This document shows, piece by piece, positions 2 through 11,569 of a stretch of 24,000 bases of DNA. Source of the stretch: Bacillota bacterium (GTDB lineage Bacteria > Bacillota > Desulfotomaculia > Desulfotomaculales > Ammonificaceae); assembly GCA_040756575.1 (NCBI GenBank), contig JBFLYP010000008.1:79523-103522 (forward strand). Reading direction: 5' to 3'. The notes under the pieces were generated by a model. That model worked only from the letters and a program-made list of their open reading frames with translations, was not told the origin of the DNA and did not search any database. Every line of letters starts with the position of its first letter. Position 1 is the first letter of the stretch. The position numbers and the translations under genes are program-made.

Positions 2-1498
2 AATCTCGCGGAGAAAAGCACCGGCACGTCTGCCGCGCCCGCCGTTCCGTTTCCTTATTACCTGCAGCGTGCGGGTGAGGCCTTGTGCCTCGGTGTTCTG
101 GACCTGCTGGCGCTCGGCCTCAGCTTCACCGTTGCGTCGGCGGTGCGGCTCGAAATCCTGCCGCGTTTGTGGCCGGGGCTCAGCGCAGGCCTCCCGGAGG
201 GCTTCTCCGCTCATTACTGGTGGCTGGCGGCCGTTGTAACCGGGATGCTGGCTTACGAAGGGCTTTATACCCGCCGGCTCTCCTTCTGGCGGGAGTGCGG
301 CGCCGTCTGCAAGGCGCTGACCCTCGGAATTCTCTTAATCCTCGCCATAGTCTCGTTGGGAAAACTCGGCGGTGAAATATCCCGGGCAACCCTGATGCTT
401 GCTTATACGGCCGCTGTGTTTTTAGTACCTTCCGTCCGCCGGCTGGGCAAGGCCGCGCTCTTCCGCTTCAACCCGTGGCGGCGCAGGGTGCTCATCCTCG
501 GCGCGGGGAAGACCGGGCGGGTGATGGCCGAAGCTCTGCTTAACGACCGCTACCGCGGCTACACAGTCTGTGGTTTCCTCGACGACGACCTTGTCAAACA
601 GCGCACAGGCGTGTCGGTGAACGGGACAACCCTCCCTGTCCTGGGCGGCTTCCGGGAGAGCGACCGGGTGATGGCCTTGACGAGGGCGTACGACCTCATC
701 GTGGCCGCGCCGGGGATGCCGGCCCAGGAACTTGTCGGCCTGGTGAACAGGCTGCACCGCCGGGCACCCTCGGTCATGGTGGTTCCCGACCTCTTCGGGA
801 TGCCGGTGGTCGGTGCCGAGGCCGACTACCTCTTCCAGGAAAGGGCGCTTGTCTTCCGGGTCCGCAACAACCTGGCCAGCCCCTTGAACCGCTTCGTCAA
901 GCGCACCTTTGACCTGGCTGCCGGTGGCGTTATCCTTGTGTTTATCGCCCCGCTGCTGGCTGCGCTCTCTGCGGCCGTGAAGCTTGATTCGCCGGGGCCG
1001 GTTTTCTTTCGGCACCGGCGGATCGGGCGCGGCGGTAAGCCCTTTTACTGTCTGAAGTTCCGCACGATGCACCTCAACAACGAAGCAATCCTCCGCGACT
1101 ACTTGGCACAAAACCCGGCTGCCGCTGAGGAATGGCGCCTTTATTACAAATTGAAAGGCTACGACCCCCGGGTGACCCGTGTGGGGCGGCTGCTGCGCCG
1201 GTTCAGCCTGGACGAGCTGCCGCAGCTTTTCAACGTCCTGAAAGGCGAGATGAGCCTGGCCGGCCCGCGCCCTTACCTCCCGCGGGAACGCGGCGACATC
1301 GGCTACTTAGCCGACAGCATCTTCATCGCCCGGCCCGGAATGACCGGACTCTGGCAGGTGAGCGGCCGCAACGAACTTACCTTCGAGGACCGCGTCCGGC
1401 TCGAAGCCTGGTATGTCCACAACTGGTCGCTGTGGCTCGACATCACTTTGCTGCTGCGGACATTCAGCGCGGTATTTGCAAGGCGGGGGGCTTATTAG
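2..1498 (+). CDS. Polyprenyl glycosylphosphotransferase (bacterial sugar transferase, WbaP/EpsB-like); 5' end probably outside window
   Basis: Frame is open from nt 2 with no stop upstream of the tracked TTG at 83. C-terminal sugar-transferase hallmarks: [44 protein letters not shown]. Central Rossmann-like [12 protein letters not shown] and hydrophobic N-terminal helices. Confidence 0.85.
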
Positions 1499-1537
1499 AG
1501 TCCCGGCGGAATGTGAGTAAGGCTTACTTACAAACTG

Positions 1538-1546
1538 TGGTATACT
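1538..1546 (+). promoter_or_regulatory. Candidate extended -10 promoter (TGgTATACT) between the sugar transferase and the first cassette
   Basis: tgtgGTATACTgtag: TATACT at 1541-1546 preceded by TG at 1538-1539. No good -35. Sequence resemblance only. Confidence 0.3.
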
Positions 1547-1581
1547 GTAGATGAGCAGACGCGGCCGATTTGTTTTCCGCT

Positions 1582-1623
1582 GAACCTTGAATGCAAAACG
1601 TCGAACTTCGAACTATAAACGAG
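1582..1623 (+). repeat. Heptamer array R1 (degenerate, 6 phased units)
   Basis: gaacctt gaatgca aaacgtc gaacttc gaactat aaacgag, running straight into the RBS gaggag of the MNT gene. Confidence 0.7.
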
Positions 1624-1633
1624 GAGAATAAAG

Positions 1634-1990
1634 GTGGACCGGGAAAAACTTCCGGAAAAACGGGCGGCCTACACGAAGCTGCTCCGAGAGTCTCTGGAGC
1701 GGGCCGTCGCAGTACTTTCCTCATTAAAGGAAGTTGAGCGCGTCAGTCTCGTCGGTTCATATGCCTGCGGTCGGGCCGACCTGCTAACCGATCTCGACCT
1801 TTTGGTTGTGATGCGTACGAAGCGCCCGTTTCTTGAGCGGTTACGGGAGCTTTACAGTCTGCTGGCGCTCCCGGTAGACCTGGACCTTTTATGCTACACA
1901 CCCGAGGAACTTGACGCCTTAAAAGACCGGCCCTTTTTCAAAAAGTTGCTTCAGAAAGAAGTGGTGCTCTATGAGAAGAAGCCCTCTTGA
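1634..1990 (+). CDS. Minimal nucleotidyltransferase (MNT-type antitoxin of an HEPN-MNT module)
   Basis: GTG start after RBS gaggag. Pol-beta NTase motif [10 protein letters not shown]...DLDLLVV. Overlaps the downstream HEPN gene by 20 nt. Confidence 0.8.
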
Positions 1991-2375
1991 AGAAGGAAGA
2001 CGCTGGCTCGAGCAGGCCGGGGAAGACCTCCGCTGGGCCAAAGACCTGGCCGAGCGGGGCGGATACCACCTGGCCTGCTTTCTTGCCCAGCAGGTTAGCG
2101 AAAAGGCGGTCAAAGGTTTTCTTTACGCACAGGGTGAGGAGGTAGTGCTGGGCCACTCCATCGAACGGCTCTGTCACGCCGCCGCCCGCTGGGAACCGGA
2201 ATTTGCCGTGAAGGTGAAGCGCTGGTCCATCCTGGACGGCTATTACGTACCGACGCGTTACCCAAACGGCCTTCCAGATAGTATTCCTGCCCGCGTCTAC
2301 ACCCGTGATGCGGCCCGCGAAGCAGTGCGCTTAGCAGAAGAAGTTGTGGACTTTGTACGCCAGAAGCTCACATAG
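1971..2375 (+). CDS. HEPN domain protein (toxin partner of MNT)
   Basis: W..A..DL..A, GHSIERL and [13 protein letters not shown] are typical of HEPN (PF05168-like) proteins. Overlaps the MNT gene. Confidence 0.8.
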
Positions 2376-2378
2376 CCC

Positions 2379-2410
2379 AAACTTCGAACTAACAAACTTC
2401 GAACTATCTT
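2379..2410 (+). repeat. Heptamer array R2 (TTCGAAC type)
   Basis: aaacttcgaactaacaaacttcgaactatctt, immediately after the HEPN stop (2373-2375). Confidence 0.7.
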
Positions 2411-2457
2411 CTTATCGGTAGCACGCCGATCTTTCACAACTTGATACTGTTAACCGG

Positions 2458-2484
2458 CGCCTCCGCGAAATGGGCTACTTTTAG
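2458..2484 (+). pseudogene. 27-nt relic of the 3' end of a PAPS-reductase-family gene (..LREMGYF*)
   Basis: cgcctccgcgaaatgggctacttttag is near-identical to 8703-8729 and clearly related to 8047-8073 and 4286-4312. A heptamer array follows directly. Confidence 0.6.
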
Positions 2485-2535
2485 AACTTCGAACTGTTTA
2501 ACCTCGAACTATCTAACTTCGAACTATCGAACTAA
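2485..2535 (+). repeat. Heptamer array R3 (TTCGAAC type)
   Basis: aacttcgaactgtttaacctcgaactatctaacttcgaactatcgaactaa. Confidence 0.75.
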
Positions 2536-2552
2536 TGCTCAACCTCCCATAA

Positions 2553-2617
2553 GGTAAAGTATAATAAAAGAAAAAAACCGGCCCGTATCGAACGAAAAGT
2601 AATAGATGGGGGGTAAA
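2553..2617 (+). promoter_or_regulatory. Conserved about 65-nt leader, copy 1 (contains TATAAT at 2560-2565)
   Basis: ggtaaagtataat..aaaaaaaccggcccgtatcgaacgaaaagtaatagatgggggg aligns by eye with 10018-10078 at roughly 85% identity with a 4-nt indel. Confidence 0.45.
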
Positions 2618-2621
2618 CAGG

Positions 2622-2806
2622 AACTTACAGAACATCTACGAGTATATCGCTGCAGATTCCGAGGTTTACGCCAGCCCGGTTTGTAAAAAGTATCGTAAAA
2701 ACAAGCGAAAAGCTCACGAGCTTCCCGCTAATAAGTCGAATAGTTCCTGAATTTGCAGCCTACGGCTTGATAGCGGAAACAAGACGATTATCACGGTTAC
2801 GGTTAA
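2622..2806 (+). pseudogene. ParE/RelE-family toxin remnant (5'-truncated, frameshifted)
   Basis: One frame reads NLQNIYEYIAADSEVYASP. The +1 frame continues VKSIVKTSEKLTSFPLISRIVPEFAAYG. Together these match the ParE pattern (I..YIA.DSP..A ... L..FP..GR.VPE). No start codon or N-terminus. Confidence 0.4.
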
Positions 2807-2839
2807 GAAAAAAATTTTCTCCGAGAGGAGGAATGACTT

Positions 2840-3094
2840 GTGAAAATAGAGTACGATCCTGAAGTAGACGCCCTTTACATAGAGTTTCGCAGCGCGTCAC
2901 CCGTCCATAGCGTAGACATTGAAGAAGGAGTCAGCGTAGACCTGGACGAGGAACATCATATCGTTGGGGTAGAGATTCTGGACGCATCCGAAAGGCTTCG
3001 GGAAAACTTAGCCCGGATCGAGCTAACCGGCCTGCCGCTCTGGGAATTGCCCCTCAGGCGGCGCTTGCCGGCCTCATCCCCCGGTGCAGAATAA
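2840..3094 (+). CDS. DUF2283 domain protein
   Basis: GTG start after RBS gagaggagg. MKIEYDPEVDALYIEF...IVGVEILDAS is the characteristic DUF2283 signature. Confidence 0.75.
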   Translation: MKIEYDPEVDALYIEFRSASPVHSVDIEEGVSVDLDEEHHIVGVEILDASERLRENLARIELTGLPLWELPLRRRLPASSPGAE

Positions 3095-3116
3095 CCTGCG
3101 TAAGATGGGCTTTTGT

Positions 3117-3180
3117 TAACCCTGAACGCCGAACCTTGAACCCTGAACTTCGAACTTCGAACTATCTAACTTCGAACTAA
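3117..3180 (+). repeat. Heptamer array R4 (mixed types)
   Basis: taaccct gaacgcc gaacctt gaaccct gaacttc gaacttc gaactat ctaacttc gaactaa. Preceded by cctgcgtaagatgggcttttgttaa (3095-3119), a possible further relic of the ..LREMGYF* gene end. Confidence 0.8.
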
Positions 3181-3212
3181 GTTGCTGTTATTAAGAATGA
3201 GGTGAGACTTAC

Positions 3213-3437
3213 GTGGTAGACACAGCATCTTCTTCTCGCTTCCAAGAGGTCATCGAAATGGTCGAGACGTTACCGCCGGATGATCAGAAGCTATTGATCG
3301 AAATCATCCGGCAGCGCTTGATCCAGCACCGGCGCGCTGAAATAGCGGCGGAGGTCCAAGAAGCTCGTCATGCGTACCAGCGGGGCGAAGTCCGCCGGGG
3401 CACGGTAGGTGACCTCATGGAGGAACTGGCAGAGTGA
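3213..3437 (+). CDS. Putative antitoxin of the RelE-like toxin
   Basis: GTG start after RBS gaggtgag. Small acidic helical protein. Its stop overlaps the toxin start (GTGA). Confidence 0.55.
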   Translation: MVDTASSSRFQEVIEMVETLPPDDQKLLIEIIRQRLIQHRRAEIAAEVQEARHAYQRGEVRRGTVGDLMEELAE

Positions 3438-3718
3438 GAACCCTCGTCTGGAGTCCGACTTTCTTGCGTGCATTCAAGCGAACGGTTCGCCGGCAGCCGG
3501 AATTGCGAACAAGAGTTGAGCAAACCCTTAAACAGCTTGCCGAGGACCCTTTTCACCCCGCGCTGCATAGCCACAAATTGAAGGGAGAGTTAGCCGGCAC
3601 GTGGGCTTGCACCGTGGACTACAATAACCGTATCCTTTTCGAACTTGTCCGGAATCCAGAGTCAGGTGAGGAGGAGATTCTTCTCTTGACGATGGGCACC
3701 CACGATGAAGTGTACTGA
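3434..3718 (+). CDS. RelE/YafQ-family mRNA interferase toxin
   Basis: F.RAFKR..., DPFHPALHSHKLKGELAGTWACTVDYNNRILF...GTHDEVY is typical of RelE/StbE/YafQ-type toxins. Confidence 0.8.
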   Translation: MRTLVWSPTFLRAFKRTVRRQPELRTRVEQTLKQLAEDPFHPALHSHKLKGELAGTWACTVDYNNRILFELVRNPESGEEEILLLTMGTHDEVY

Positions 3719-3737
3719 ACAGGTTTCTTCTGTCCAA

Positions 3738-3846
3738 AGAGAGATCTTGGCGCTTATAAGCAGACTGGACCCAGGCAGAAAGAATTAAAAGTGTCATTCA
3801 CGGTTTCGTACGCTACCTCCGCAACCATAACAAACGTCGAACGTAG
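3738..3846 (+). pseudogene. 3' relic of a four-helix-bundle (23S rRNA IVS protein family) gene, frameshifted
   Basis: ..LGAYKQT.. then, after a frame shift, KSVIHGFVRYLRNHNKRRT*. Parallels LYKQTEEVKKTIYGFMRYLRSNPKKR* (9486-9859) and LYKQAEKTKSIICGLMRYLRTNPKP* (11740-11991). The stop lies in a heptamer unit. Confidence 0.4.
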
Positions 3847-3867
3847 AACGTAGAACGCAGAACGGCG
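3833..3867 (+). repeat. Heptamer array R5 (5 units)
   Basis: aacgtcg aacgtag aacgtag aacgcag aacggcg. Confidence 0.8.
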
Positions 3868-3872
3868 CAAAC

Positions 3873-4312
3873 AAGATCGCTACGACATTCACCGGCGGCA
3901 AGGACTCCACCACGCTCTTGCACATGCTCCGGCAGGTGGGCGGCGGGAAAGTGCCCGTCCGGGTGATAAAAATCGATACCGGCGCCGACTTCCCGGAGAT
4001 TTACGCCTTCGTTGACCGGCTCTTCACCGCCATCCGCTGGGACGAGCAGGAGGCCCGGCAGGATGAACAGTACTTCTCCGAGGGCAAAGACCCCGATCAC
4101 TTGCGGGTGCAGCCCACCCTGCACTTTAAGGAGATCGACATCTGGAGCTACATCCGCAAGTACGAACTTCCTTTCTGCGAGCTTTACCGCGCGGCTACCG
4201 CAGCCTTGACTGCGCGCCCTGCACCGGCCGCGGCGGCCCCAGCGAGCGTGGCGCCCGCTCCCGGGATAAAGAGGCCGCCATGCAGCGCCTGCGGGAGATG
4301 GGCTATTTCTAA
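3873..4312 (+). pseudogene. PAPS-reductase-family gene, decayed paralog of 7411-8073
   Basis: Nucleotide-level homolog of 7483-8073. It is 5'-truncated (lacks about the first 25 codons). It carries an in-frame 150-bp deletion (FVDRL|FTAIRW; the intact copy has 50 extra residues AKEWEL...GLKAV). A 1-nt deletion at ELYR|(RGYRSLDC) shifts the frame. Tracked ORF 3918-4358 is the resulting chimeric read-through. Confidence 0.85.
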
Positions 4313-4336
4313 CAAATGCGAGATAGGTTACAATAT
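4313..4336 (+). repeat. 24-nt shared joint caaatgcgagataggttacaatat, copy 1 (contains TACAAT)
   Basis: Identical to 8074-8097. Both copies follow the stop of a PAPS-reductase-family copy and precede different TA modules. Confidence 0.8.
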
Positions 4337-4372
4337 CTATAGATCCAAGTTTTTGTGAAAGGCAGAGGAAAA

Positions 4373-4609
4373 ATGAAAAAGGAGTTAATCCAATCGGATC
4401 CTGATGTTATGATGGGCAAACCGGTCATTGCCGGGACGCGGATTCCTGTTTCCCTGATTCTTGAAAAGCTTGCCGCCGGGGAAACGATGGAGCAGATCCT
4501 CCAGGCTCATCCGCGCTTGACGGAAGAGGCGATCCGGGCCGCCCTGGCTTTCGCCGCGGAAGCCGTTAAAGCCGATATAGCATACGCAATACGGGAAAAA
4601 GCCAAATGA
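4373..4609 (+). CDS. DUF433 domain protein (putative antitoxin)
   Basis: ATG at 4373 after ggcagagga. DPDVMMGKPVIAGTRIPVSLILEKLAAGET..ILQAHPRLTEEAIRAAL is the DUF433 signature. ATGA overlap with the next gene. Confidence 0.8.
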   Translation: MKKELIQSDPDVMMGKPVIAGTRIPVSLILEKLAAGETMEQILQAHPRLTEEAIRAALAFAAEAVKADIAYAIREKAK

Positions 4610-4974
4610 TCTTCCTGGCGGATGAAAGCGTTGACCAGCAGATCATCGACCGGTTAAGAGAACACGGCTACGTAGTGATAGCCGTCGTGGAAATGGAGCC
4701 GGGTATTAGCGATACAGCCGTGTTAGATTTAGCGAATGCGCGTGAGGCTTTGTTAGTTACAGCGGACAAAGACTTTGGTGAACTCGTCTTCCGCCAGCGC
4801 CGGGTAAGTAAAGGTATAATCCTGCTACGCTTAGCAGGCCTATCCCAAGAAAAGAAAGCGGCGCTGGTTGCCCAAGCGATAGAGACTCACTTAAAAGAAC
4901 TGGAAGGTTCGTTTGGGGTTATAACGCCTGGCTCCTTGCGTATCAGGAAAATGCGCGTCAAAAAAACTAACTAA
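4606..4974 (+). CDS. DUF5615 PIN-like protein (putative toxin partner of DUF433)
   Basis: MIFLADESVD..L...GY.V..V......SDTAVLDLA..REALLVTADKDFGEL matches the DUF5615/Mut7-C-like pattern. Confidence 0.75.
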   Translation: MIFLADESVDQQIIDRLREHGYVVIAVVEMEPGISDTAVLDLANAREALLVTADKDFGELVFRQRRVSKGIILLRLAGLSQEKKAALVAQAIETHLKELEGSFGVITPGSLRIRKMRVKKTN

Positions 4975-5145
4975 ACCTTGAACCCTGAACGTCGCACCTT
5001 GCACCTTGCACCTTGCACCTTGAACCTTGCACCTTGCACCTTGAACCTTGAACCTTGAACCTTGAATGTCGAACGTTGAACGTTGAACGGACCCCAAAGG
5101 TCCATCCCTTAAGCTGTAACGCCGAACGTTGAACGTCGAACGAGG
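4974..5145 (+). repeat. Heptamer array R6 (longest: 16 phased units, hairpin motif, 4 more units)
   Basis: aaccttg aaccctg aacgtcg (caccttg)x4 aaccttg (caccttg)x2 (aaccttg)x3 aatgtcg (aacgttg)x2, then motif 5085-5114, then aacgccg aacgttg aacgtcg aacgagg. Confidence 0.95.
5085..5114 (+). repeat. Conserved 30-nt hairpin motif, copy 1
   Basis: gaacGGACCccaaaGGTCCatcccttaagc: 5-bp stem GGACC/GGTCC with a 5-nt loop. Confidence 0.9.
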
Positions 5146-5158
5146 GGGGATAAAAAAC

Positions 5159-5395
5159 TTGAAACGCTTTAATTTAACCAGTCTCATATGGAAGGAAGAA
5201 CACGGCTACGTCTCAAAATGCCCGGAACTCGGCGTGGCCAGCGCCGGCGACACAATCGAAGAAGCATTTGCCAACCTGAAAGAAGCGGTAGAGCTTTATT
5301 TAGAAAACGCTAAAGAACTGGGCCTCTTGGATGAATTGAGTTTCGCGCTCAGGCCGGATAAATTTACCGCCTCTTTCGAGGTCGAGGCCCGGTGA
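5159..5395 (+). CDS. hicB: HicB-family antitoxin
   Basis: TTG at 5159 after RBS gagggggg. ..EEHGYVSKCPELGVASAGDTIEEAFANLKEAVELYLE is the HicB/UPF0150 N-domain pattern. Overlaps the hicA start. Confidence 0.7.
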   Translation: MKRFNLTSLIWKEEHGYVSKCPELGVASAGDTIEEAFANLKEAVELYLENAKELGLLDELSFALRPDKFTASFEVEAR

Positions 5396-5642
5396 CCCGG
5401 CTGCCTGTTTTATCCGATACCGAAGTGATCAGAATTCTCCTCAGACTCGGCTTCCAGTACGCTCCGAGGCGAGGAAAGGGCAGTCATATTGCGTTGTATA
5501 AAGCCGGCGAATCTGGACACCGGTTGCTGGTAATCGTACCGAAAAGAAAAGAAAAGAGATTCCCCGCGGCACCCTAATGGCAATTTTAGAACAGGCACAA
5601 GTCAGCCGTGAAGAATTCCTGCGCCTGCTTGGGAGAGAATAA
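5392..5642 (+). pseudogene. hicA: HicA-family toxin with a frameshift in an A-rich run
   Basis: Frame 1 gives ..VIRILLRLGFQYAPRRGKGSHIALYK...VIVPKRKEKRFPAAP* (stop 5575-5577). The expected HicA C-terminus EIPRGTLMAILEQAQVSREEFLRLLGRE* is in another frame (5556-5642). The switch lies in gaaaagaaaagaaaagag (5541-5558). Confidence 0.7.
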
Positions 5643-5660
5643 CGCTTCGTCTGCTGATTT

Positions 5661-5751
5661 GAACCCTAAACGCCGAACGCCGAACGTAGAACGCTAAACC
5701 TTAAACGTTGAACGTTGAACGTCGAACCTTGAACCTTGAACGTTGAACGAA
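5661..5751 (+). repeat. Heptamer array R7 (13 phased units)
   Basis: gaaccct aaacgcc gaacgcc gaacgta gaacgct aaacctt aaacgtt gaacgtt gaacgtc gaacctt gaacctt gaacgtt gaacgaa. Confidence 0.9.
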
Positions 5752-5776
5752 CCCCAGAGGTCCATCATTTTGAGCT
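5745..5776 (+). repeat. Hairpin motif, copy 2 (degenerate)
   Basis: gaacGAACCccagaGGTCCatcattttgagc: the stem carries one mismatch and the 3' tail has diverged. Confidence 0.7.
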
Positions 5777-5804
5777 TAAACGCTTAAGAGAGGAGGTAAA
5801 CCAA

Positions 5805-5888
5805 ATGGAGCTACTTCGCGAAGTGGCTGAAGCGCTGGACATGAAACAGGATTTTCTCGCCCGGAAAAGCCTGAACCTTGAACGTTGA
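5805..5888 (+). pseudogene. Truncated duplicate of the first about 23 codons of the 10082-10360 gene
   Basis: MELLREVAEALDMKQDFLARKSL is identical in protein to 10082 onward. It then runs into array R8 and stops (NLER*). It has its own RBS gaggagg. Confidence 0.75.
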
Positions 5889-5949
5889 ACGTTGAACGTT
5901 GAACGTCGAACGTAGAACGTCGAACGTAGTACGTCGCACGCCGAACGAG
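5873..5949 (+). repeat. Heptamer array R8 (11 units)
   Basis: gaacctt (gaacgtt)x3 gaacgtc gaacgta gaacgtc gaacgta gtacgtc gcacgcc gaacgag. Confidence 0.9.
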
Positions 5950-5957
5950 GTGAAAAA

Positions 5958-6218
5958 ATGGCCACCGAAAAAAAGGATTTAAAAGAAATCTTGCGCCTTG
6001 CCAGCCAGCTTCCGGAGGAGCAACAATTAGAACTTATTACCAAGTTGTCCTTACGCCTCCGCGTTAAAGGTGAAAGAGAAAATACCGGTAAACGATTGTC
6101 TGCTGCCAAAGAAGCACTCTTGGAAAAGACAAAGGGAGCTTGGGCCAACAATCCTGAAATAGAACGCGCGCTTGCAGAACTCAACCGGAGTTGGCAGGAA
6201 TGGGCAAAGGAATTGTAA
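5958..6218 (+). CDS. Putative antitoxin (VapB-position) of PIN toxin
   Basis: ATG after gaggtgaaaaa. Its N-terminus MATEKKDLKEILRLASQLPEEQQLELITKLS is paralogous to 10827-11057. Overlaps the PIN gene. Confidence 0.55.
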   Translation: MATEKKDLKEILRLASQLPEEQQLELITKLSLRLRVKGERENTGKRLSAAKEALLEKTKGAWANNPEIERALAELNRSWQEWAKEL

Positions 6219-6592
6219 TTGATACCGGCGTTATAATTGCTCACCTGAGAGCAGCCGGCAAAACAAAGACCTCTTTCCAGGAGGCTATTGAGCGGTATCC
6301 AAAATGTTATATATCGTCAATCACTGCCTGGGAAATCGAATACGGTGCCTGTCGCGCCGGGCGCCCTTCAGATCTCACGGATATTTTGGGATTGGTTAAA
6401 GTGTTGCCTTTTGACCTGGAAGATGCACGCGTAGCTGCAAAAGTGCACGCGGAACTGAAATCGCGCAACCAAGAAATAGGCATCCGGGACGTCTTTATCG
6501 CCGGAACCTGCCTGGCAAATGGTCTGCCTCTTTTAACCGCCAACGTCAAGCACTTCCGGCGAGTAAGTAACTTAGAGGTAATACAACCTTGA
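6200..6592 (+). CDS. vapC: PIN domain ribonuclease toxin (VapC family)
   Basis: GIVIDTGVIIAHL (first acidic residue), ...ITAWEIEYG..., ...IGIRDVFIAGTCLANGLPLLTANVKHF. ATG at 6200 preferred over TTG at 6191. The stop TGA lies in the first heptamer. Confidence 0.8.
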   Translation: MGKGIVIDTGVIIAHLRAAGKTKTSFQEAIERYPKCYISSITAWEIEYGACRAGRPSDLTDILGLVKVLPFDLEDARVAAKVHAELKSRNQEIGIRDVFIAGTCLANGLPLLTANVKHFRRVSNLEVIQP

Positions 6593-6692
6593 ACCTTAAA
6601 CGTTGAACTTTGAACCTTGAATGTTGAACGTTGAACGTTGAACGGACCCCAGAGGTCCATCCCTTAAGCCTGAACCTTGAACGTTGAACGAA
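6585..6692 (+). repeat. Heptamer array R9 (8 units, hairpin motif, 3 units)
   Basis: aaccttg aacctta aacgttg aactttg aaccttg aatgttg aacgttg aacgttg, then motif 6640-6669, then gaacctt gaacgtt gaacgaa. Confidence 0.9.
6640..6669 (+). repeat. Hairpin motif, copy 3
   Basis: gaacGGACCccagaGGTCCatcccttaagc. Confidence 0.9.
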
Positions 6693-6709
6693 AAAAGGAG
6701 TGACCTGCG

Positions 6710-6907
6710 ATGAAAAAGTCTCTGAAAAACTACGACGACCTCAACGTGACAGAAAAGCGGATCAGCTATCTCTTAGGAGCACGGTTGCGAGAAACAGACA
6801 GGGTCAAGAATGCGATGAAAAAACAGGATGGGATCAGGAAGAAGCATCCTGCACCTGAAGGTTGGGATAGCGCTTCCGTAATTAGAAGTTGGCGGGAAAC
6901 CCGGTGA
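6710..6907 (+). CDS. Putative antitoxin (VapB-position)
   Basis: ATG after RBS aaggag. Small charged protein. Its stop overlaps the GTG of the downstream PIN fragment (GTGA). Confidence 0.5.
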   Translation: MKKSLKNYDDLNVTEKRISYLLGARLRETDRVKNAMKKQDGIRKKHPAPEGWDSASVIRSWRETR

Positions 6908-7310
6908 GTGTTTTAGACGCCTCTGTAATACTGAAGTGGTTCATAAATGAAGAGGACAGCGACCAGGCACTCCGGCTCAGAGAAGAATTCTACTCAGGTA
7001 AAAGGGATATCGTAGTTCCTGATCTTCTATTATATGAGGTAGTGAACGCTTTAAAATACAATCCAACTTTTAAAGAAACTGAAATCAAGAAAGCGGTTAA
7101 AACGCTTTTCGACCTTGGAATAAAGATAATAACTCCCGCTTTGAAAAAGCTAAAGGACTGCGGCTAAAATAAAAATATAGGGATAAGCCGGATATCTCGT
7201 TTACGGATTTAACTTCTATCGTAATTATGCAGGAGCTGAAAATCTCGCGGATTTTACCAGAGGACGAACACTTCATGCAGGTCGGCCTGAATTTCGAACT
7301 TGCTCCATAA
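6904..7310 (+). pseudogene. vapC: Disrupted/chimeric PIN (VapC) toxin
   Basis: The N-terminal part VSVLDASVILKWF...VVPDLLLYEVVNAL stops at 7165-7167 after about 88 codons. A different frame (7173-7310) encodes a PIN C-terminus of another subtype: DISFTDLTSIVIMQELKISRILPEDEHFMQVGL..*. Confidence 0.6.
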
Positions 7311-7311
7311 C

Positions 7312-7393
7312 GAACCTTGAACCTTGAACGTTGAACCTTGAACGGACCCCAAAGGTCCATCAACCTAAGCTTTAACGTTGAACGTTGAACAGA
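7312..7393 (+). repeat. Heptamer array R10 (4 units, hairpin motif, 3 units)
   Basis: gaacctt gaacctt gaacgtt gaacctt, then motif 7340-7370, then taacgtt gaacgtt gaacaga. Confidence 0.9.
7340..7370 (+). repeat. Hairpin motif, copy 4
   Basis: gaacGGACCccaaaGGTCCatcaacctaagc (tail variant). Confidence 0.85.
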
Positions 7394-7410
7394 CAGGAGG
7401 CCCCCTACCC

Positions 7411-8073
7411 GTGAGTCTGAACGAAAAAGAAGCGAAAAGTCTGAAGCTGATTCGCGAAACCCTCGACCGCTTCGGCCCGGACAAAGTCGCTACCACCTGG
7501 ACCGGCGGCAAGGACTCCACCACCCTCCTGCACATGCTCCGGCAGGTGGGCGGCGGCAAAGTCCCCGTCCGGGTGATAAAAATCGATACCGGCGCCGACT
7601 TCCCGGAGATTTACGCCTTCGTGGACCGGCTGGCGAAGGAATGGGAGTTAGACCTCCACGTCCTCCGCAACGAAGAAGCGATAAAAACCATCAAAGTGGC
7701 GGAGGACCCGCTCCAGTGCTGCTACCAGCTCAAGACCGTGCCGCTCCTCAACTTCATCCGGGAGCAGGGCTTGAAAGCGGTCTTCACCGCCATCCGTTGG
7801 GATGAGCAGGAGGCCCGGCAGGATGAGCAGTACTTCTCCGAGCGGAAGGATCCCGACCACCTGCGGGTGCAGCCCCTCCTGCACTTCCGGGAGATCGACA
7901 TCTGGAGCTACATCCGGAAGTACGATTTGCCCTTCTGCGAGCTCTACCGCCGGGGCTACCGCAGCCTCGACTGCGTGTCCTGCACCGGCCGCGGCGGCCC
8001 CAGCGAACGCGACGCCCGCTCCCGGGACAAGGAGGCCGCCATGCAGCGCCTGCGGGAGATGGGCTATTTCTAA
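7411..8073 (+). CDS. PAPS reductase / PP-loop ATP pyrophosphatase family protein (intact copy)
   Basis: GTG at 7411 after RBS caggagg; the tracked TTG at 7378 lies in the repeat. PP-loop-like TWTGGKDSTTLLHML. CysH/CysD-like LRVQPLLHFREIDIWSYIRKYDLPFCELYRRGYRSLDCVSCT. Confidence 0.85.
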   Translation: MSLNEKEAKSLKLIRETLDRFGPDKVATTWTGGKDSTTLLHMLRQVGGGKVPVRVIKIDTGADFPEIYAFVDRLAKEWELDLHVLRNEEAIKTIKVAEDPLQCCYQLKTVPLLNFIREQGLKAVFTAIRWDEQEARQDEQYFSERKDPDHLRVQPLLHFREIDIWSYIRKYDLPFCELYRRGYRSLDCVSCTGRGGPSERDARSRDKEAAMQRLREMGYF

Positions 8074-8097
8074 CAAATGCGAGATAGGTTACAATAT
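8074..8097 (+). repeat. 24-nt shared joint, copy 2 (TACAAT at 8090-8095)
   Basis: Identical to 4313-4336. Confidence 0.8.
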
Positions 8098-8121
8098 AGA
8101 CTGAGAGGGGTGCGCCAGGTA

Positions 8122-8391
8122 ATGAAGATTTTCTATACAGTCGTCCTGAGAAAACTCTCCGACCAGTGGGTAGCCCTGTGCCTGGAAAACGGTTGCGTGG
8201 GACAGGGAACCACCCGGGAGGAAGCCGTAGAGAAGCTCAGATCCGCGGTTTCTTCCATAATGGAGGCAGCACATGACGATCCGGATATATTTGTGGCACC
8301 GGTACCGATTAAGGAACTTCATGAGTTTCTGACCGTCGGCGGCGTCGATCCTGTGGCCGAAACCTTTGAGCTAAGGGCCGTAAATGCCTAA
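8122..8391 (+). CDS. hicB: HicB-family antitoxin
   Basis: ATG at 8122. MKIFYTVVLRKLSDQWVALCLENGCVGQGTTREEAVEKLRSAV is the HicB N-domain pattern. Overlaps hicA by 8 nt. Confidence 0.7.
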   Translation: MKIFYTVVLRKLSDQWVALCLENGCVGQGTTREEAVEKLRSAVSSIMEAAHDDPDIFVAPVPIKELHEFLTVGGVDPVAETFELRAVNA

Positions 8392-8626
8392 GAACATTCC
8401 GTCGCTGAAGCCCCGCCAGTTGGTCCGTCTGTTGGAGGGAGCGGGCTGTCGCTTTTACAGGGAGGGCAAAGGCGATCACCGCCTTTACGTGCGCTACGCT
8501 GAAGGAAAGAAGTTGGTGGTTCCCATAGATATGGGGCTTACGGAACTCTCCCCAGTATATATCTTGCGCGTACTCAGACAGTTCAGGTTCACAGACGCAG
8601 AAATTGAAGAAATGTTGAAATCATAG
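8384..8626 (+). CDS. hicA: HicA-family mRNA interferase toxin
   Basis: LKPRQLVRLLEGAGCRFYREGKGDHRLYV is the YcfA/HicA pattern. Paired with the upstream HicB. Confidence 0.8.
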   Translation: MPKNIPSLKPRQLVRLLEGAGCRFYREGKGDHRLYVRYAEGKKLVVPIDMGLTELSPVYILRVLRQFRFTDAEIEEMLKS

Positions 8627-8729
8627 CCTGTGCCCCTGCACCGGCCGCGGCGGGCCTACCGAGCGCGGCGCCCGTTCCCGGGATAAAGAGGCAGCCATGC
8701 AGCGCCTCCGCGAAATGGGCTACTTTTAA
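8627..8729 (+). pseudogene. About 100-bp relic of the PAPS-reductase-family 3' end
   Basis: Aligns with 7971-8073 (tgcaccggccgcggcgg...atgcagcgcct.cg.ga.atgggcta.tt.taa). Starts right after the hicA stop. Its own stop (8727-8729) is the first unit of array R11. Confidence 0.8.
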
Positions 8730-8800
8730 CGTTGAACGTTGAACGTTGAACGTTGAACGTTGAACGGACCCCAGAGGTCCATCCCTTAAGCTTTAACGAG
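8727..8800 (+). repeat. Heptamer array R11 (5 units, hairpin motif, 1 unit)
   Basis: taacgtt (gaacgtt)x4, then motif 8762-8791, then tt taacgag. Confidence 0.9.
8762..8791 (+). repeat. Hairpin motif, copy 5
   Basis: gaacGGACCccagaGGTCCatcccttaagc, identical to copy 3. Confidence 0.9.
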
Positions 8801-8809
8801 GTGAAAAAA

Positions 8810-9034
8810 ATGGGACTCGAAAACACAAGAGACGAACTGCTCCTAAAACAAATCAACACCTTAGAACGCGAAGTAGAGCGCCTCAAGCGGAACCTTCTTC
8901 ATAACCTAACTGCGAGGACCGGCCGAAAAAAAGCCAAACCCTCTCTGTTTGGAAGCGTCCGGAGCGGCGACATTGCCGATGAAGAGATCCAAAAGGCAAA
9001 GACGGCTTTGTTTAGAGACCTGGAGGATCTGTAG
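8810..9034 (+). CDS. Putative antitoxin (VapB-position)
   Basis: ATG at 8810 after gaggtgaaaaaa; the tracked upstream start lies in the repeat. Coiled-coil-like small protein immediately upstream of the PIN gene. Confidence 0.5.
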   Translation: MGLENTRDELLLKQINTLEREVERLKRNLLHNLTARTGRKKAKPSLFGSVRSGDIADEEIQKAKTALFRDLEDL

Positions 9035-9051
9035 CGCTTATGGAGGAGGAT

Positions 9052-9438
9052 ATGCTGTATGTTCTTGATACCCATGTGCTCATTTGGTATTTCACCGGTA
9101 GTAGACGCCTTAAACAGCAGCTTAAAGAACTCATTGATCATGTTCGGTCAGCAGGTGGACGTCTGTTAGTCCCTACGATAGTGCTGGCCGAAGCAATGGA
9201 CATCGCCGAAAAAGGCCGTGTACGCTTCGACTTCACCGAAATGTACCGGTTGATCAAGGAAGAACCGGAGTTCGAAATCGTCAGCTTCAGCCCGGATATC
9301 CTTGAAGAGTCGACGCGGATCAGTAATATTCCTGAAATTCACGACCGAATCATCGTCGCTACAGCTAAATTTTACCAGGCAGGTATACTAACAAAAGACA
9401 GGATAATCCGTAGCTCAGGAGAGACAGAAACGCCTTGA
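9052..9438 (+). CDS. vapC: PIN domain ribonuclease toxin (VapC family)
   Basis: MLYVLDTHVLIWYF..., ...VPTIVLAEA..., ...HDRIIVATA.....ILTKD. RBS ggaggagga. The stop TGA lies in the first heptamer. Confidence 0.8.
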   Translation: MLYVLDTHVLIWYFTGSRRLKQQLKELIDHVRSAGGRLLVPTIVLAEAMDIAEKGRVRFDFTEMYRLIKEEPEFEIVSFSPDILEESTRISNIPEIHDRIIVATAKFYQAGILTKDRIIRSSGETETP

Positions 9439-9485
9439 ACGCCGCACGCCGAACGTAGAACGTAGAACGTCGAACGGTGAAACAA
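9437..9485 (+). repeat. Heptamer array R12 (7 units, in phase up to the next ATG)
   Basis: gaacgcc gcacgcc gaacgta gaacgta gaacgtc gaacggt gaaacaa, followed directly by ATG 9486. Confidence 0.9.
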
Positions 9486-9859
9486 ATGCCAATCGAAAAA
9501 TTCGAAGACATCCAGGCCTGGCAGCTTGCCCGGGAGTTGACCCAGGGGTGTATACAGCAACAAACCGGAAGGAATTCAGCCGTGACTATGGCCTGCGCGA
9601 CCAGGTGCAGCGCGCCGCCGTCCCCATAATGGCCAATATCGCGGAGGGATTCGACAGCCAGAGCAACCAGACGTTCCTGCAGTTCCTGAGCTACGCGGTC
9701 CGGTCGGCTACCGAGGTCCAGTCCCATCTCTACGTCGCCCTGGACCAAGGCTACATAAACGAAACTACGTTTGCCGAATTGTACAAACAAACGGAGGAAG
9801 TTAAAAAAACGATTTACGGCTTTATGCGCTACCTGCGCTCCAACCCCAAAAAACGTTGA
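9486..9859 (+). pseudogene. Four-helix-bundle protein (23S rRNA intervening-sequence protein family), apparent 1-nt frameshift near codon 21
   Basis: ATG 9486 gives MPIEKFEDIQAWQLARELTQG, the typical family N-terminus (F.DL.vWQ.A..L). The rest of the family signature (VYTAT..F..DYGLRDQVQRAAVPIMANIAEGF...FLQFLSYAVRSATEVQSHLYVA) is in the frame of tracked ORF 9548-9859. Could instead be a sequencing error or a GTG-initiated shorter product. Confidence 0.7.
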
Positions 9860-10016
9860 ACTATCTAACTTCGAACTAATAAACTTCGAACTTCGAACTA
9901 TCCAACTTCGAACTTCGAACTATCCAACTTCGAACTTCGAACTATCTAACTTCGAACTTCGAACTTCGAACTAACAAACTTCGAACTAATTAACCTTGAA
10001 CCTTGAACGTTGAACG
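9854..10016 (+). repeat. Heptamer/octamer array R13 (TTCGAAC type, 22-nt higher-order repeat; last 3 units TTGAAC type)
   Basis: cgttgaa ctatctaa cttcgaa ctaataaa (cttcgaa)x2 ctatccaa (cttcgaa)x2 ctatccaa (cttcgaa)x2 ctatctaa (cttcgaa)x3 ctaacaaa cttcgaa ctaattaa ccttgaa ccttgaa cgttgaa. Confidence 0.95.
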
Positions 10017-10030
10017 GGGTAAAGTATAGT
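10003..10030 (+). promoter_or_regulatory. Candidate sigma-A-type promoter: TTGAAC (from the last heptamers), 16 nt, TATAGT
   Basis: TTGAAC at 10003-10008 and TATAGT at 10025-10030, inside conserved leader copy 2 (10018-10078). Sequence resemblance only. Confidence 0.4.
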
Positions 10031-10081
10031 AAAAAAAACCGACCAGTACCGAACGAAAAATAATAGATGGGGGTAGACGAA

Positions 10082-10360
10082 ATGGAACTGCTTCGGGAAG
10101 TGGCTGAAGCGCTCGATATGAAACAGGATTTTCTCGCCCGGAAAAGCCTGACCTTATACCTGGAAAAAGAACTGCGCGACACGGAAGCAGCGATTTTTAA
10201 AATCACCTCCAGATACGGCGTTAAGTCAGTATTTGAACTTGATGAAAGACTGAAACAAGGGAAACTGAAAGAAGAAGATATGCTTGACGACTTCCTTGAA
10301 CTTGACTACCTGGAGGCAAAAAGGGATAAGATCCGCCGTGTCCTGGAGAAGATTCAATGA
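10082..10360 (+). CDS. Putative antitoxin-position protein upstream of the DUF6516-like gene
   Basis: ATG at 10082 after gatggggg. Helical charged protein MELLREVAEALDMKQDFLARKSL.... ATGA overlap with the next gene. Confidence 0.5.
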   Translation: MELLREVAEALDMKQDFLARKSLTLYLEKELRDTEAAIFKITSRYGVKSVFELDERLKQGKLKEEDMLDDFLELDYLEAKRDKIRRVLEKIQ

Positions 10361-10737
10361 TAACGCTGGAAAAGCTCCGGAGAATCGCCGAAGTCGAGTA
10401 TTGTGATATAGTGGCATTTACGGAGATTATGCAAAATAAGCTCCGGATTTACCTGATAGATAAGTCATTTGTTGATGTTGGGTTTTCAGTAAAGGTCCCT
10501 GGCCGCTACTCCTATCACTGGGAAAGACGACACGTAGATCAAACGATCTATCGCCATGATAATTTTCCGGACCCACGTTGGAAGGCGGTCTCGACCTTTC
10601 CTAAGCACTTCCATAAAGGGTCGGAGAACCAAGTGGAGGAGAGTCACATCAATGACGACCCAGGGACAGGCATCCGTCAATTTATGGAATTCGTCCAAAG
10701 ATTGATTAGAGGTCTAACTTCGAACTGTAAACCTTGA
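10357..10737 (+). CDS. DUF6516-like (TumE-type) putative toxin
   Basis: YSYHWERRH...IYRHDNFPDPRWKAVSTFPKHFHKGSE resembles the DUF6516 pattern (Y.YHW......RyDNaPH......fPhHkH). Family recalled from memory, not searched. The last codons (LTSNCKP*) are repeat units. Confidence 0.5.
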   Translation: MITLEKLRRIAEVEYCDIVAFTEIMQNKLRIYLIDKSFVDVGFSVKVPGRYSYHWERRHVDQTIYRHDNFPDPRWKAVSTFPKHFHKGSENQVEESHINDDPGTGIRQFMEFVQRLIRGLTSNCKP

Positions 10738-10817
10738 ACGAGGAGTGTTTTTGATGATCGAACTTCGAACTATCTAACTTCGAACTTCGAACTATCGAAC
10801 TTCGAACTATTAACCGA
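10714..10817 (+). repeat. Heptamer array R14 (two blocks: 10714-10743 and 10758-10817)
   Basis: ctaacttcgaactgtaaaccttgaacgagg ... cgaacttcgaactatctaacttcgaacttcgaactatcgaacttcgaactattaaccgagg. Confidence 0.85.
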
Positions 10818-10826
10818 GGTGAAAAA

Positions 10827-11057
10827 ATGGCCACCGAAAAGAAAAAAATATCAGAGCTTGTGCGACTCGCCGGCAGACTTCCGGTAAACGAACAATTAGA
10901 ATTAATCGCCAGACTTTCTGCCCAGCTTGCAGGTAAGAGAGCCGCTCACATTGAAAAAAGAACATGGATGGAAATGGCGGGTCTCGGCGCCGAAATTTGG
11001 AAAGACGTTGACGCCCAGGAGTATGTCCGCCGGGAGAGAGCAAGTTGGGAAGATTAG
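10827..11057 (+). CDS. Putative antitoxin (VapB-position), paralog of 5958-6218
   Basis: Same leader gaggtgaaaaaATGgccaccgaaaa. N-terminus MATEKKKISELVRLAGRLPVNEQLELIARLS. Confidence 0.55.
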   Translation: MATEKKKISELVRLAGRLPVNEQLELIARLSAQLAGKRAAHIEKRTWMEMAGLGAEIWKDVDAQEYVRRERASWED

Positions 11058-11536
11058 CGGCGATCCTCAAAGCGTATCGCACTGTCGCACTGGATACCGC
11101 GGTTTTTATCTACCACTTCGAGAAAAACGAGAAGTATAGTGTAATAACTGAAGAAATTTTCTCGCGTCTGGACAAAGATAAAAACTTCGCTGCGGTTACT
11201 TCGGTCATCACCGTGCTGGAAGTTTGCGTAAAGCCTATTAAAGAATCGCGGCAGGACCTAGCGACCGAGTACACACAAAAATTGCTTTATGATGATAAAC
11301 TGGCAACCTGGGTTGTTGATGGAAATATAGCCCAAAAAGCTGCCGAAATCAGGGCTAAGTACGGTATAAGGACTCCTGATGCGATTCAAGTAGCCACAGC
11401 CATTACAGCGGAAGCAGATGTTTTTATCACCAATGACACCGCCTTAAAGAAAATCGAAGAAATCGAAGTACTGGTCCTCAAAGAACTTGCCGCCCCAGTG
11501 GAAGAGGCTAACACTCCAGCAAACGCCGAACGTTGA
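11045..11536 (+). CDS. vapC: PIN domain protein (VapC-like toxin); start uncertain
   Basis: VALDTAVFIYHF..., ...VITVLEV..., ...RTPDAIQVATAITAEADVFITND. The stop TGA lies in a heptamer unit. Confidence 0.7.
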   Translation: MGRLAAILKAYRTVALDTAVFIYHFEKNEKYSVITEEIFSRLDKDKNFAAVTSVITVLEVCVKPIKESRQDLATEYTQKLLYDDKLATWVVDGNIAQKAAEIRAKYGIRTPDAIQVATAITAEADVFITNDTALKKIEEIEVLVLKELAAPVEEANTPANAER

Positions 11537-11569
11537 ACGCCGAACGCCGAACGTAGAACGCAGAAAGGA
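11521..11569 (+). repeat. Heptamer array R15 (7 units)
   Basis: aaacgcc gaacgtt gaacgcc gaacgcc gaacgta gaacgca gaaagga, running into RBS aggagg. Confidence 0.9.

Follow-up and report, generated by a model that had tools for sequence, protein, structure and literature searches.

Degenerate heptanucleotide tracts between the toxin-antitoxin cassettes of a Bacillota bacterium

Most of the spaces between the small genes of a toxin-antitoxin island in an uncultured Bacillota bacterium of the family Ammonificaceae are occupied by direct tandem repeats of seven nucleotides (nt). The island lies in a stretch of 24,000 nt (GenBank assembly GCA_040756575.1, contig JBFLYP010000008.1, positions 79,523 to 103,522 of the forward strand), which is called the window here and to which all coordinates refer. 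The tract at 4974-5145, to which an earlier reading of the sequence alone had drawn attention, is a member of a lineage-specific family of degenerate heptanucleotide simple sequence repeats (SSRs), and together with a small stem-loop, GGACCCCARAGGTCC, it forms the whole spacer between the stop codon of one gene and the Shine-Dalgarno (SD) sequence of the next. What is conserved in this family is the 7-nt phase and a GAAC anchor, not a palindrome. The best explanation of the tracts, to which we give a probability of roughly 60%, is that they are slippage-prone repeats that form intercistronic leaders and also provide homology for the shuffling of cassettes. The flagged tract and its immediate surroundings are made up as follows.

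4606-4974, + strand: upstream gene encoding a DUF5615 protein, the PIN-like toxin partner of DUF433 (Pfam PF18480, E = 1.5e-24).
4974-5088, + strand: main flagged array of 16.4 heptamers with no indel, mostly GCACCTT and GAACCTT, the final two GAACGTT (Tandem Repeats Finder, TRF; RNA fold z = -0.94).
5085-5121, + strand: conserved element GAAC-GGACCCCAAAGGTCC-ATCCCTTAAGCTGTAACG with a 5-bp stem and 5-nt loop at 5089-5103 (five copies in the window).
5118-5145, + strand: right-hand short array, AACGCCG AACGTTG AACGTCG AACG..., which runs into the SD sequence (TRF, sequence).
5142-5161, + strand: SD sequence GAGGGGGG at 5142-5149 and probable hicB TTG start at 5159 (SD and start are kept in L132, a contig from a relative; Pfam matches to HicB_lk_antitox and HicA).

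The TAA stop codon of the DUF5615 gene (4972-4974) adjoins the first repeat unit of the flagged array. The sequence-only reading had described 16 units in strict 7-nt phase without a slip, and this is borne out by TRF, which gives 4974-5088 a period of 7, 16.4 copies, 86% matches and 0% indels, with a second period-7 array of 3.6 copies at 5118-5142. In order, the phased units are GAACCCT, GAACGTC, four of GCACCTT, one of GAACCTT, two more of GCACCTT, three of GAACCTT, then GAATGTC and two of GAACGTT (GCACCTT making up 6/15, GAACCTT 4/15 and GAACGTT 2/15). Around 20 further period-7 arrays were detected by TRF between 2378 and 12063, among them the 22-nt higher-order repeat that had also been described, which is present in 5.9 copies at 9859-9988. 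Six GAAC anchors at 7-nt spacing are matched seven times in the window, compared with 0.00 times expected from 100 dinucleotide shuffles. An assembly artefact, which had been named as a possible refutation, is ruled out by independent data: the Logan short-read contig L001 (SRR29635774_6237) starts inside the last array of the island and is 100% identical to the window over 11,182 nt, that array being reproduced base for base by this independent assembly (SRR29635774), and independent metagenome contigs from ENA and JGI carry the same kind of arrays. Since L001 breaks off in that array, at window position 11989, metagenome-assembled genomes (MAGs) from short reads will probably be broken at each junction of islands like this one.

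The arrays had further been described as built on the palindromic hexamers AACGTT and TTCGAA, and this part of the description does not stand. TRF arrays were phased by their own consensus, with no anchor imposed on single units, and the information of the 92 units in the window peaks at G-A-A-C (1.24, 1.44, 1.85 and 1.59 bits) as against 0.61, 1.27 and 0.73 bits at positions 5-7. When the relatives are included the anchor positions hold 1.2-2.0 bits and positions 5-7 hold 0.3-1.3 bits, with positions 5 and 7 of the would-be palindrome lowest at 0.6-0.8 bits in the phase-aligned arrays. The palindromic GAACGTT-type unit accounts for 23% of units in the window (21/92) and 3% in relatives (5/154), and the unit consensus is G-A-A-C-S-Y-H. 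The spectrum of units differs by genome, with GTT and CTT endings in the window and GCC, GTA, GCA and GTC in the relatives, where GAACGCC, GAACGTA, GAACGCA and GAACGTC are the main units and both anchor and phase are retained. A second class of unit (class 2, AACTTCG AACTTCG AACTATCY) keeps an AAC anchor at 7, 7 and 8 nt. All 16 of the 16 TRF arrays of the first class (class 1) lie on the gene strand, and variant units are clustered locally, as in the four and then two GCACCTT units of the flagged array and six AAACCTT units in the last array.

The fold-back that was proposed for these repeats does exist in part. Single strands of (AACGTTG)n fold as had been described, in blocks of 4 to 6 pairs with single unpaired positions between them, the best class-1 case being the array at 8728-8766 (-17.8 kcal/mol, z = -3.9), and other arrays rich in AACGTT or TTCGAA also fold beyond their shuffles (6585-6647, z -3.6; 9858-9990, z -8.05; 10758-10810, z -4.7). 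In the fold of 5072-5145, AACGTT units to the left of the stem-loop pair with those to its right. However, the flagged interval is not more stable than shuffled sequence (DNA z -1.95, RNA z -1.60; z -0.94 for the 16-unit array alone), and arrays of other units are not beyond their shuffles (5662-5749, z -1.2; 5872-5947, z +0.25; 11522-11565, z +1.0). A z below -2 is reached in 5 of 10 window arrays and in none of 11 arrays of relatives, those of L132, whose centroid is empty, being much less structured than their shuffles (z +5.3 and +2.1). Over 21 arrays the fold z follows the fraction of palindromic units (Spearman -0.80). Self-complementarity thus comes along with certain unit variants in this genome and is not conserved. 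Fold-back potential is limited to arrays whose variable positions spell AACGTT or TTCGAA.

It is apparent that the tracts have a fixed relation to the genes on either side. They span from the upstream stop codon to the next SD sequence, with the stop in or beside the first unit (the vapC TGA codons at 6592 and at 9438 lie inside a CCTTGAAC unit), and their last units merge with the SD sequence 10-25 nt before the start codon, as in GAACGAGG, in GAACGAGGGGGG-N9-TTG for hicB and in GAACGAGGTGAAAAAATG for vapB. The SD sequences that follow the arrays are canonical (GAGGGGGG, GAGGTG, AGGAGG and GGAGG). In the window's lineage an SD sequence and start within 45 nt are found for 12/42 array segments on the same strand and for 1/42 on the reverse strand (p = 0.0016); orientation was judged by this test and by manual annotation, as six-frame statistics of open reading frames (ORFs) were too noisy from spurious antisense ORFs.

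In five gaps the tract is interrupted by the conserved stem-loop, 15 nt long with a 5-bp stem and a 5-nt loop, in the arrangement GAAC-GGACCCCARAGGTCC-ATC-N4-TTRAGC-N2-RAACG.

5089-5103, 5749-5763, 6644-6658, 7344-7358 and 8766-8780, + strand: copies of the stem-loop, found also in contigs L122-L133.

Scanning metagenomes for the stem-loop motif gave 12 contigs from relatives, and over these and the window there are 28 instances, 26 sequences of which were aligned. The inner 4 bp of the stem hardly vary, with a single A-for-G variant at 5749, and in the outer pair there are two compensatory T-A changes and five mismatches, so that the evidence of covariation is weak; the stem-loop has no Rfam match. 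Which variant of the stem-loop and which right-hand short array are present depends on the cassette that follows, and not on what precedes them. In the relatives the module of array and stem-loop also stands upstream of rpmA, a yqfC-like gene (sporulation), a yabN-like gene and sugar-transferase genes (the names are our reading of the translations), and it is therefore a genome-wide intergenic element that is concentrated in the island. The lineage is probably spore-forming.

Promoter-like hexamers are not enriched (9 compared with 7.2 expected), only one being linked to an array (10003-10030), and terminator-like sites are neither in excess nor associated with arrays, so the arrays do not represent promoters or intrinsic terminators. 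These counts bear on whether the heptads could be iterons of double-stranded DNA, which a small repressor, for example a ribbon-helix-helix (RHH) protein like omega or ParB, would occupy cooperatively as an operator or a kind of centromere, so as to silence or organise the island. The contiguous ungapped 7-bp units, the length of the arrays (at least four units) and their position upstream of toxin-antitoxin operons would suit such a role, for which parS of pSM19035 is a precedent (PMC9499535). Yet the units all point one way on the gene strand, where native omega sites have mixed orientations, and promoter-like hexamers are not enriched, a single one involving an array. With the module also standing before rpmA and sporulation genes, and a unit unlike the omega heptad WATCACW, iterons are a very improbable explanation. 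A further candidate, that the arrays mimic the anti-SD sequence (CACCUU against GGAGG), was suggested by the pairing of CCUUG with CGAGG in the minimum free energy (MFE) fold and was rejected because the GAACGCC, GAACGTA and GAACGCA units of the relatives have no CCUU.

Arrays with a GAAC anchor are not confined to this lineage. A scan of genome contigs for five GAAC-N3 units gave at least 120 loci in many phyla, none of the matches listed being related to the window, and in IMG/VR both GAAC-anchored patterns and GACA-anchored patterns used as a control gave at least 120 loci each with similar heterogeneity of units. GAAC as a universal anchor was rejected, the GACA control being equally frequent and, among the IMG/VR matches listed, equally heterogeneous. 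The generic GAAC arrays of other phyla show no enrichment upstream of an SD sequence and start (15/156 compared with 12% of random positions), and from this and the GACA control GAAC is therefore a feature of the lineage rather than a universal signal. Among IMG/VR contigs, an SD sequence and start follow GAACSTT arrays more often than they follow random positions (41/123 compared with 10%).

In IMG/VR contigs, Acidobacteriota and other MAGs, GAAC arrays often occur as inverted pairs of the form 5'-(GTTCNNN)n-loop-(GAACNNN)n-3', with this polarity outnumbering the opposite one 37 to 4 among the matches listed in the genome scan and the GAACSTT scan of IMG/VR. The pairs fold into long, periodically mismatched hairpins whose end lies 10-20 nt before an SD sequence and start codon, examples being L169 2430-2545 (-31.8 kcal/mol, z -3.5), L143 7570-7625 and 8816-8864, L004, L086, L096 and L112. 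GACA-anchored arrays have the opposite labelled polarity, 11 to 0. No inverted GAAC pairs were found in the window's lineage.

The regularity of the anchor raises the possibility that the tracts are a binding platform for an oligomeric protein, one that binds RNA or single-stranded DNA, reads GAAC in a 7-nt register and so controls the translation or processing of the cassettes. A 4-nt anchor that is kept while a 3-nt spacer varies would be in keeping with such a protein, as would the strict phase on the gene strand, immediately before the SD sequence and start, the unstructured tracts of the relatives and the presence of the module before housekeeping genes, and there are precedents in HutP (PMC2425495) and in the TAACTGA repeats discussed below, for which such a role has been proposed (PMC4679880). 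Against this, no candidate protein was identified, a copy number of 3 to about 20 at equivalent junctions is a poor fit to a fixed stoichiometry, the anchor itself drifts, with GCAC units amplified six times in the flagged array, and the GACA-anchored arrays, equally common and variable among the IMG/VR matches listed, show that GAAC is not globally special. A protein platform is thus a tentative and rather unlikely explanation when taken alone, but it is compatible with leaders that also serve as exchange sites, as a function added to them.

Comparison with the relatives shows how the tracts behave over time. In L132 the equivalent locus lies on the reverse strand (5300-10100) between flanking genes that are about 92% identical, and it holds a sugar transferase, a TATACT promoter-like site, an intervening-sequence (IVS) protein, a phosphoadenosine phosphosulfate (PAPS) reductase, HicBA, VapBC, a new PIN pair, a TumE-pair antitoxin, VapBC and a gene with an Mrr_cat domain; L122 and L125 have two more cassette arrangements. 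Homology blocks end within 20 nt of an array or element in 18/33 cases compared with 18% expected (p = 3e-6), although the ends are not fully independent. At the junction between hicA and the TumE-pair cassette, where the flanks are identical, the window and L125 differ by a clean gap of 35 nt (5 x 7) and by unit substitutions. The sequence-only reading had predicted that the repeats would promote slippage, and this indel of five units, together with the local runs of variant units, agrees with it; such runs are as expected from slipped-strand or unequal exchange. The variation in length that it had proposed to look for is also seen at the junctions shared with L132 and L122, where unit numbers differ. 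At other shared flanks the first one or two units are common and the remaining tract is different, and the number of copies at equivalent junctions ranges from 3 to about 20. As a side observation, the four related assemblies (the window, L132, L122 and L125) have different sets of toxin-antitoxin and defence cassettes at one locus, with no integrase or transposase seen.

The PAPS-reductase family is represented in the window by a full gene (7378-8073), an internally deleted copy (3918-4310) and isolated 3' remnants (2467-2483 and 8712-8727), both of which are fused directly to a heptamer array. A CCTGA/CCTT microhomology (5862-5885) marks the junction between an array and a truncated duplicate (5797-5873) of the TumE-pair antitoxin-like gene at 10067-10360. 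Remnants fused to arrays in this way point to repeated deletion at the tracts.

A cassette array that behaves like that of an integron might suggest that the repeats act through their mismatch-punctuated fold-back, as cruciforms or single-stranded hairpins that are recombination substrates like attC sites. The four AACGTT- or TTCGAA-rich arrays that fold beyond their shuffles (z -3.6 to -8.05) and the pairing of AACGTT units across the stem-loop of 5072-5145 speak for such a mechanism. It is, however, largely refuted as a general property, as the flagged 16-unit array falls well inside the range of its shuffles, half of the window arrays and 11/11 arrays of relatives fall short of z < -2 (up to +5.3), and palindromic units are a minority in the window and rarer still in relatives. 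Nor do the junctions look like attC sites: they carry no R''/L''-L'/R' repeats, and a scan of 1400-12200 for inverted repeats gave nine pairs, one of which (I3) touches an inter-cassette array and none of which has attC form. No integrase, tyrosine recombinase or transposase domain was found in the ORFs of the island or in its flanks (Pfam, with precomputed Pfam for 12079-23170), and the cassette boundaries fall at variable points inside the arrays with no fixed core site. GTTGAAC was tried as an attC core and rejected, fitting GTTRRRY for GTT-type units only and having no inverse-core partner or inverted repeat. All told, fold-back recombination of this kind is most improbable.

Under the preferred explanation, that of slippage-prone leaders which double as homology, slipped-strand or unequal exchange would lengthen and shorten the tracts by whole 7-nt units at the DNA level, and the tracts would supply homology for the deletion, duplication and swapping of cassettes because the inter-cassette gaps carry tracts in one orientation. 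The exchange would presumably be homologous rather than site-specific, giving an integron-like outcome without a visible integrase or attC site. At the RNA level, each tract may act as an essentially unstructured single-stranded leader before the small 5' stem-loop and SD sequence of cassettes that are mostly promoterless. Transcription probably starts from a promoter at the entry to the island (a putative extended -10 at 1538), so that the tracts would be single-stranded intercistronic leaders. Roles for which such a leader might be selected include a ribosome standby site, an RNase processing site and a binding platform for a protein with a 7-nt GAAC register.

Several points weigh against this explanation. 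A positive fold z is expected of any direct repeat that is not self-complementary, and so the unstructured tracts are no evidence of selection. The orientation of arrays with the genes could be mere inheritance, with cassettes and arrays moving as units. Conservation of GAAC is strong when units are counted, but when distinct unit types are counted instead it is modest (hand chi-square, p ~0.08 for the window and ~0.01 for relatives), and therefore common descent with gene conversion could explain a part of it. Of the ends of homology blocks, which are not independent events, 15/33 lie at other cassette edges (e.g. 10061 and 8075). The search for recombinases covered the 24-kb window, and a gene elsewhere in the genome is possible.

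A rival proposal is that the tracts are functionless hitch-hiking filler, a neutral and slippage-prone microsatellite that builds up in intergenic gaps which are dispensable, at which recombination is incidental and in which GAAC reflects descent from a founder unit with gene conversion. Heptamer arrays are indeed generic, GAAC and GACA each having at least 120 IMG/VR loci and GAAC occurring in many phyla, and heptanucleotide repeats are the commonest class of long SSR in prokaryotes according to the summary of Mrazek et al. (2007) given in PMC4679880. The wide variation in copy number and composition at equivalent junctions is also as neutral filler would have it. Yet variability is unequal along the unit in two genomes, the relation to stop codon, stem-loop and SD sequence is constant across many junctions, including those before housekeeping genes in compact operons, and the orientation is strictly on the gene strand, which makes pure filler improbable. 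An extension of the preferred explanation is a little less improbable and still speculative, namely that the modules of array and stem-loop constitute an integrase-free, integron-like platform in which promoterless cassettes behind an entry promoter would be captured, reordered and lost via the GAAC tracts, possibly with a GAAC-reading factor that also processes or tunes the transcripts.

The island in which the flagged tract lies is inserted in a polysaccharide gene cluster, between a sugar-transferase gene (83-1498) and the gene with the Mrr_cat domain (12079-13170). It contains MNT/HEPN, DUF2283, a RelE-like pair, DUF433/DUF5615, two HicBA, three VapBC and a TumE pair, with two 23S-IVS proteins, one PAPS-reductase gene and several gene remnants, and according to the ORF list the cassettes are all on the + strand. 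Of the 17 inter-cassette gaps from 1500 to 12100, 15 are filled by arrays, always on the + strand; the interior of toxin-antitoxin pairs and the polysaccharide genes at 12079-23595 have none. The features of the island, apart from the flagged site, are these.

1499-12078, + strand: hypervariable island of about 16 co-directional small cassettes (ORFs, Pfam; other cassette order at the locus in L132, L122 and L125).
1538-1546, + strand: extended -10-like TGGTATACT, just 3' of the sugar-transferase gene and 5' of the first array.
1583-1624, + strand: first short array of the island, ending in GAACGAGGAG, 10 nt before the MNT GTG start (sequence).
2378-2534, + strand: class-2 arrays (AACTTCG / AACTATCY) at 2378-2406 and 2485-2534 (TRF), the second preceded by the PAPS-reductase 3'-end remnant 2467-2483.
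3118-3179, + strand: mixed array, class 1 to class 2, upstream of the RelE-like pair (TRF).
3833-3867, + strand: array AACGTCG, two of AACGTAG, AACGCAG, AACGGCG, upstream of the PAPS-reductase fragment (TRF).
5662-5790, + strand: array of 13 units, variant stem-loop GAACCCCAGAGGTCC at 5749-5763 and leader of the truncated copy of the 10067 gene (sequence).
5872-5947, + strand: array of about 11 units fused to the truncated gene, ending in GAACGAGGTGAAAAAATG (vapB) (TRF, sequence).
6585-6693, + strand: array, stem-loop at 6644-6658 and short array, with the vapC stop inside the first unit (TRF).
7312-7394, + strand: array, stem-loop at 7344-7358 and short array, upstream of the PAPS-reductase gene (TRF).
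8728-8798, + strand: (AACGTTG)5.6 array, stem-loop at 8766-8780 and SD sequence, with the PAPS-reductase 3' remnant 8712-8727 before it (TRF, fold).
9437-9479, + strand: array of GAACGCC, GCACGCC, two of GAACGTA and GAACGTC, with the vapC stop in the first unit (TRF).
9858-10019, + strand: class-2 array with the 22-nt repeat (AACTTCG AACTTCG AACTATCY), then four class-1 units (TRF; fold z -8.05).
10716-10818, + strand: short class-1 and class-2 arrays flanking the tumE stop codon, upstream of vapB (TRF).
11522-11565, + strand: six-unit array overlapping a vapC stop codon (TRF).
11976-12067, + strand: last array, 13 units (six of AAACCTT, then mixed), ending in GAACTGGAGGAAACTTGCGATG, the start of the Mrr_cat-domain gene (TRF).

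From its position, TGGTATACT at 1538-1546 is a candidate promoter that would read into the whole cassette island, and TATACT is found at the equivalent place in L132 and L122, whichever cassette comes next. In the promoter scan a promoter-like TTGAAC-16-TATAGT comes next after the array at 9858-10019. Homologous cassette leaders occur at 2554-2565 and 10003-10030 (GTAAAGTATAAT / GTAAAGTATAGT, then an A-rich run), each with a promoter-like -10, and at 10003 the last TTGAAC unit of the array serves as the -35 with 16-nt spacing. The right flank of the last array is common to the window and L132. The Mrr_cat-domain gene that follows it encodes 363 amino acids with a weak domain match only (E = 9e-5); it is kept at the distal edge of the island in L132, and an array precedes it in both. 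ORFs beginning 'MNVERTPEVH' at a TTG inside arrays were set aside as artefacts of the conserved element.

Searches beyond Pfam added little to this picture. Rfam 15 gave 0 matches at the gathering threshold over the whole window and, at E <= 5 over the island, three chance-level matches, none at arrays; no tRNA or tmRNA was found in the window. Exact-protein look-ups of the island toxins gave no record, BLAST of 4355-6700 against plasmids and phages gave no match, and a full-text search with the repeat strings found no paper in the library covered.

The role of heptanucleotide repeats has been unclear since the short tandemly repeated repetitive (STRR) elements of cyanobacteria were described. 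The present tracts are an informative case, for their position relative to stop codon, stem-loop and SD sequence is fixed, and they keep their anchor while the rest of the unit drifts and are sited at points where defence cassettes are exchanged. The noteworthy part is the integron-like turnover of cassettes that appears to take place at heptamer tracts, any function of the tracts in it being read from sequence comparison. If the tracts do serve as homology for cassette turnover, they would be a simple recombinase-free route to plasticity of defence islands; if a factor is recruited in the 7-nt register, they would be a new class of leader signal; and if there is an integrase-free platform, Bacillota would have a new way to assemble and shuffle defence genes.

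Among known systems, repetitive extragenic palindromic (REP) sequences and bacterial interspersed mosaic elements (BIMEs) are enterobacterial palindromes of 20-40 nt in alternating orientation, associated with REP-associated tyrosine transposases (RAYTs), transcribed within operons and known as sites of rearrangement. The tracts resemble these as a dispersed, lineage-specific intergenic mosaic with a small palindromic stem-loop, but they consist mainly of direct heptamers, with a single 15-nt stem-loop, and the window has no RAYT- or transposase-like ORF. The omega protein of pSM19035 has the heptad consensus WATCACW and also regulates the epsilon/zeta toxin-antitoxin genes in plasmids of Bacillota. 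With the iterons of omega and ParB the tracts share contiguous ungapped 7-bp units in runs of at least four; omega heptads, however, lie at promoters in mixed orientation, whereas the window arrays point one way, with the genes, and extend as far as the SD sequence. In parS of pSM19035 the 7-bp heptads are contiguous and in mixed orientations, and function requires at least four (PMC9499535). The site bound by HutP has three XAG motifs with sequence-independent 4-nt spacers, which gives a 7-nt period (PMC2425495). Like the (XAG-N4)3 sites of HutP and the (G/U)AG sites of TRAP in Bacillus, the tracts present a short motif in a fixed register, 7 nt in the case of HutP, on a predicted leader RNA, but the motif is GAAC, the copies are far more numerous and variable, no cognate protein was identified and there is no terminator to antagonise.

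The likeness to an integron lies in the small co-directional and mostly promoterless cassettes, many of them toxin-antitoxin, in the promoter-like entry site, and in cassette content and order that differ between close relatives with breaks that coincide with the inter-cassette repeat. Unlike an integron, the window has neither intI nor attI, a direct tandem repeat takes the place of the imperfect inverted repeat, there is no fixed crossover and the stem-loop goes with the cassette that follows it rather than with the one before. Heptamers of the cyanobacterial STRR type were reportedly described by Mazel and colleagues in 1990. With these and other long heptanucleotide SSRs (LSSRs) the tracts share head-to-tail 7-nt units that are non-coding, lineage-specific and abundant and that change length by slippage (35 nt, five units, here), but they differ in being heterogeneous with a 4-nt anchor, strictly on the gene strand and part of a composite module of array, stem-loop, array and SD sequence.

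The closest described case is that of the TAACTGA repeats of marine Beggiatoaceae, some Cyanobacteria and Bacteroidetes, which lie in forward orientation a few nt upstream of start codons (MacGregor 2015, PMC4679880). They are overwhelmingly intergenic, in 2-6 copies sometimes interrupted by related heptamers, most of the cases in BOGUAY are without a ribosome-binding site, and translational control has been proposed for them (PMC4679880). The window tracts are like them in consisting of tandem 7-nt units with an AAC core that are intergenic, forward and end just before a start codon. They differ in that the unit is a degenerate GAACSYH, the arrays reach 16-20 units and fill the whole gap from stop codon to SD sequence, a canonical SD sequence follows the repeats and is not replaced by them, a conserved stem-loop is coupled to them, and, in a Bacillota host, they stand at the boundaries of rearranged toxin-antitoxin cassettes.

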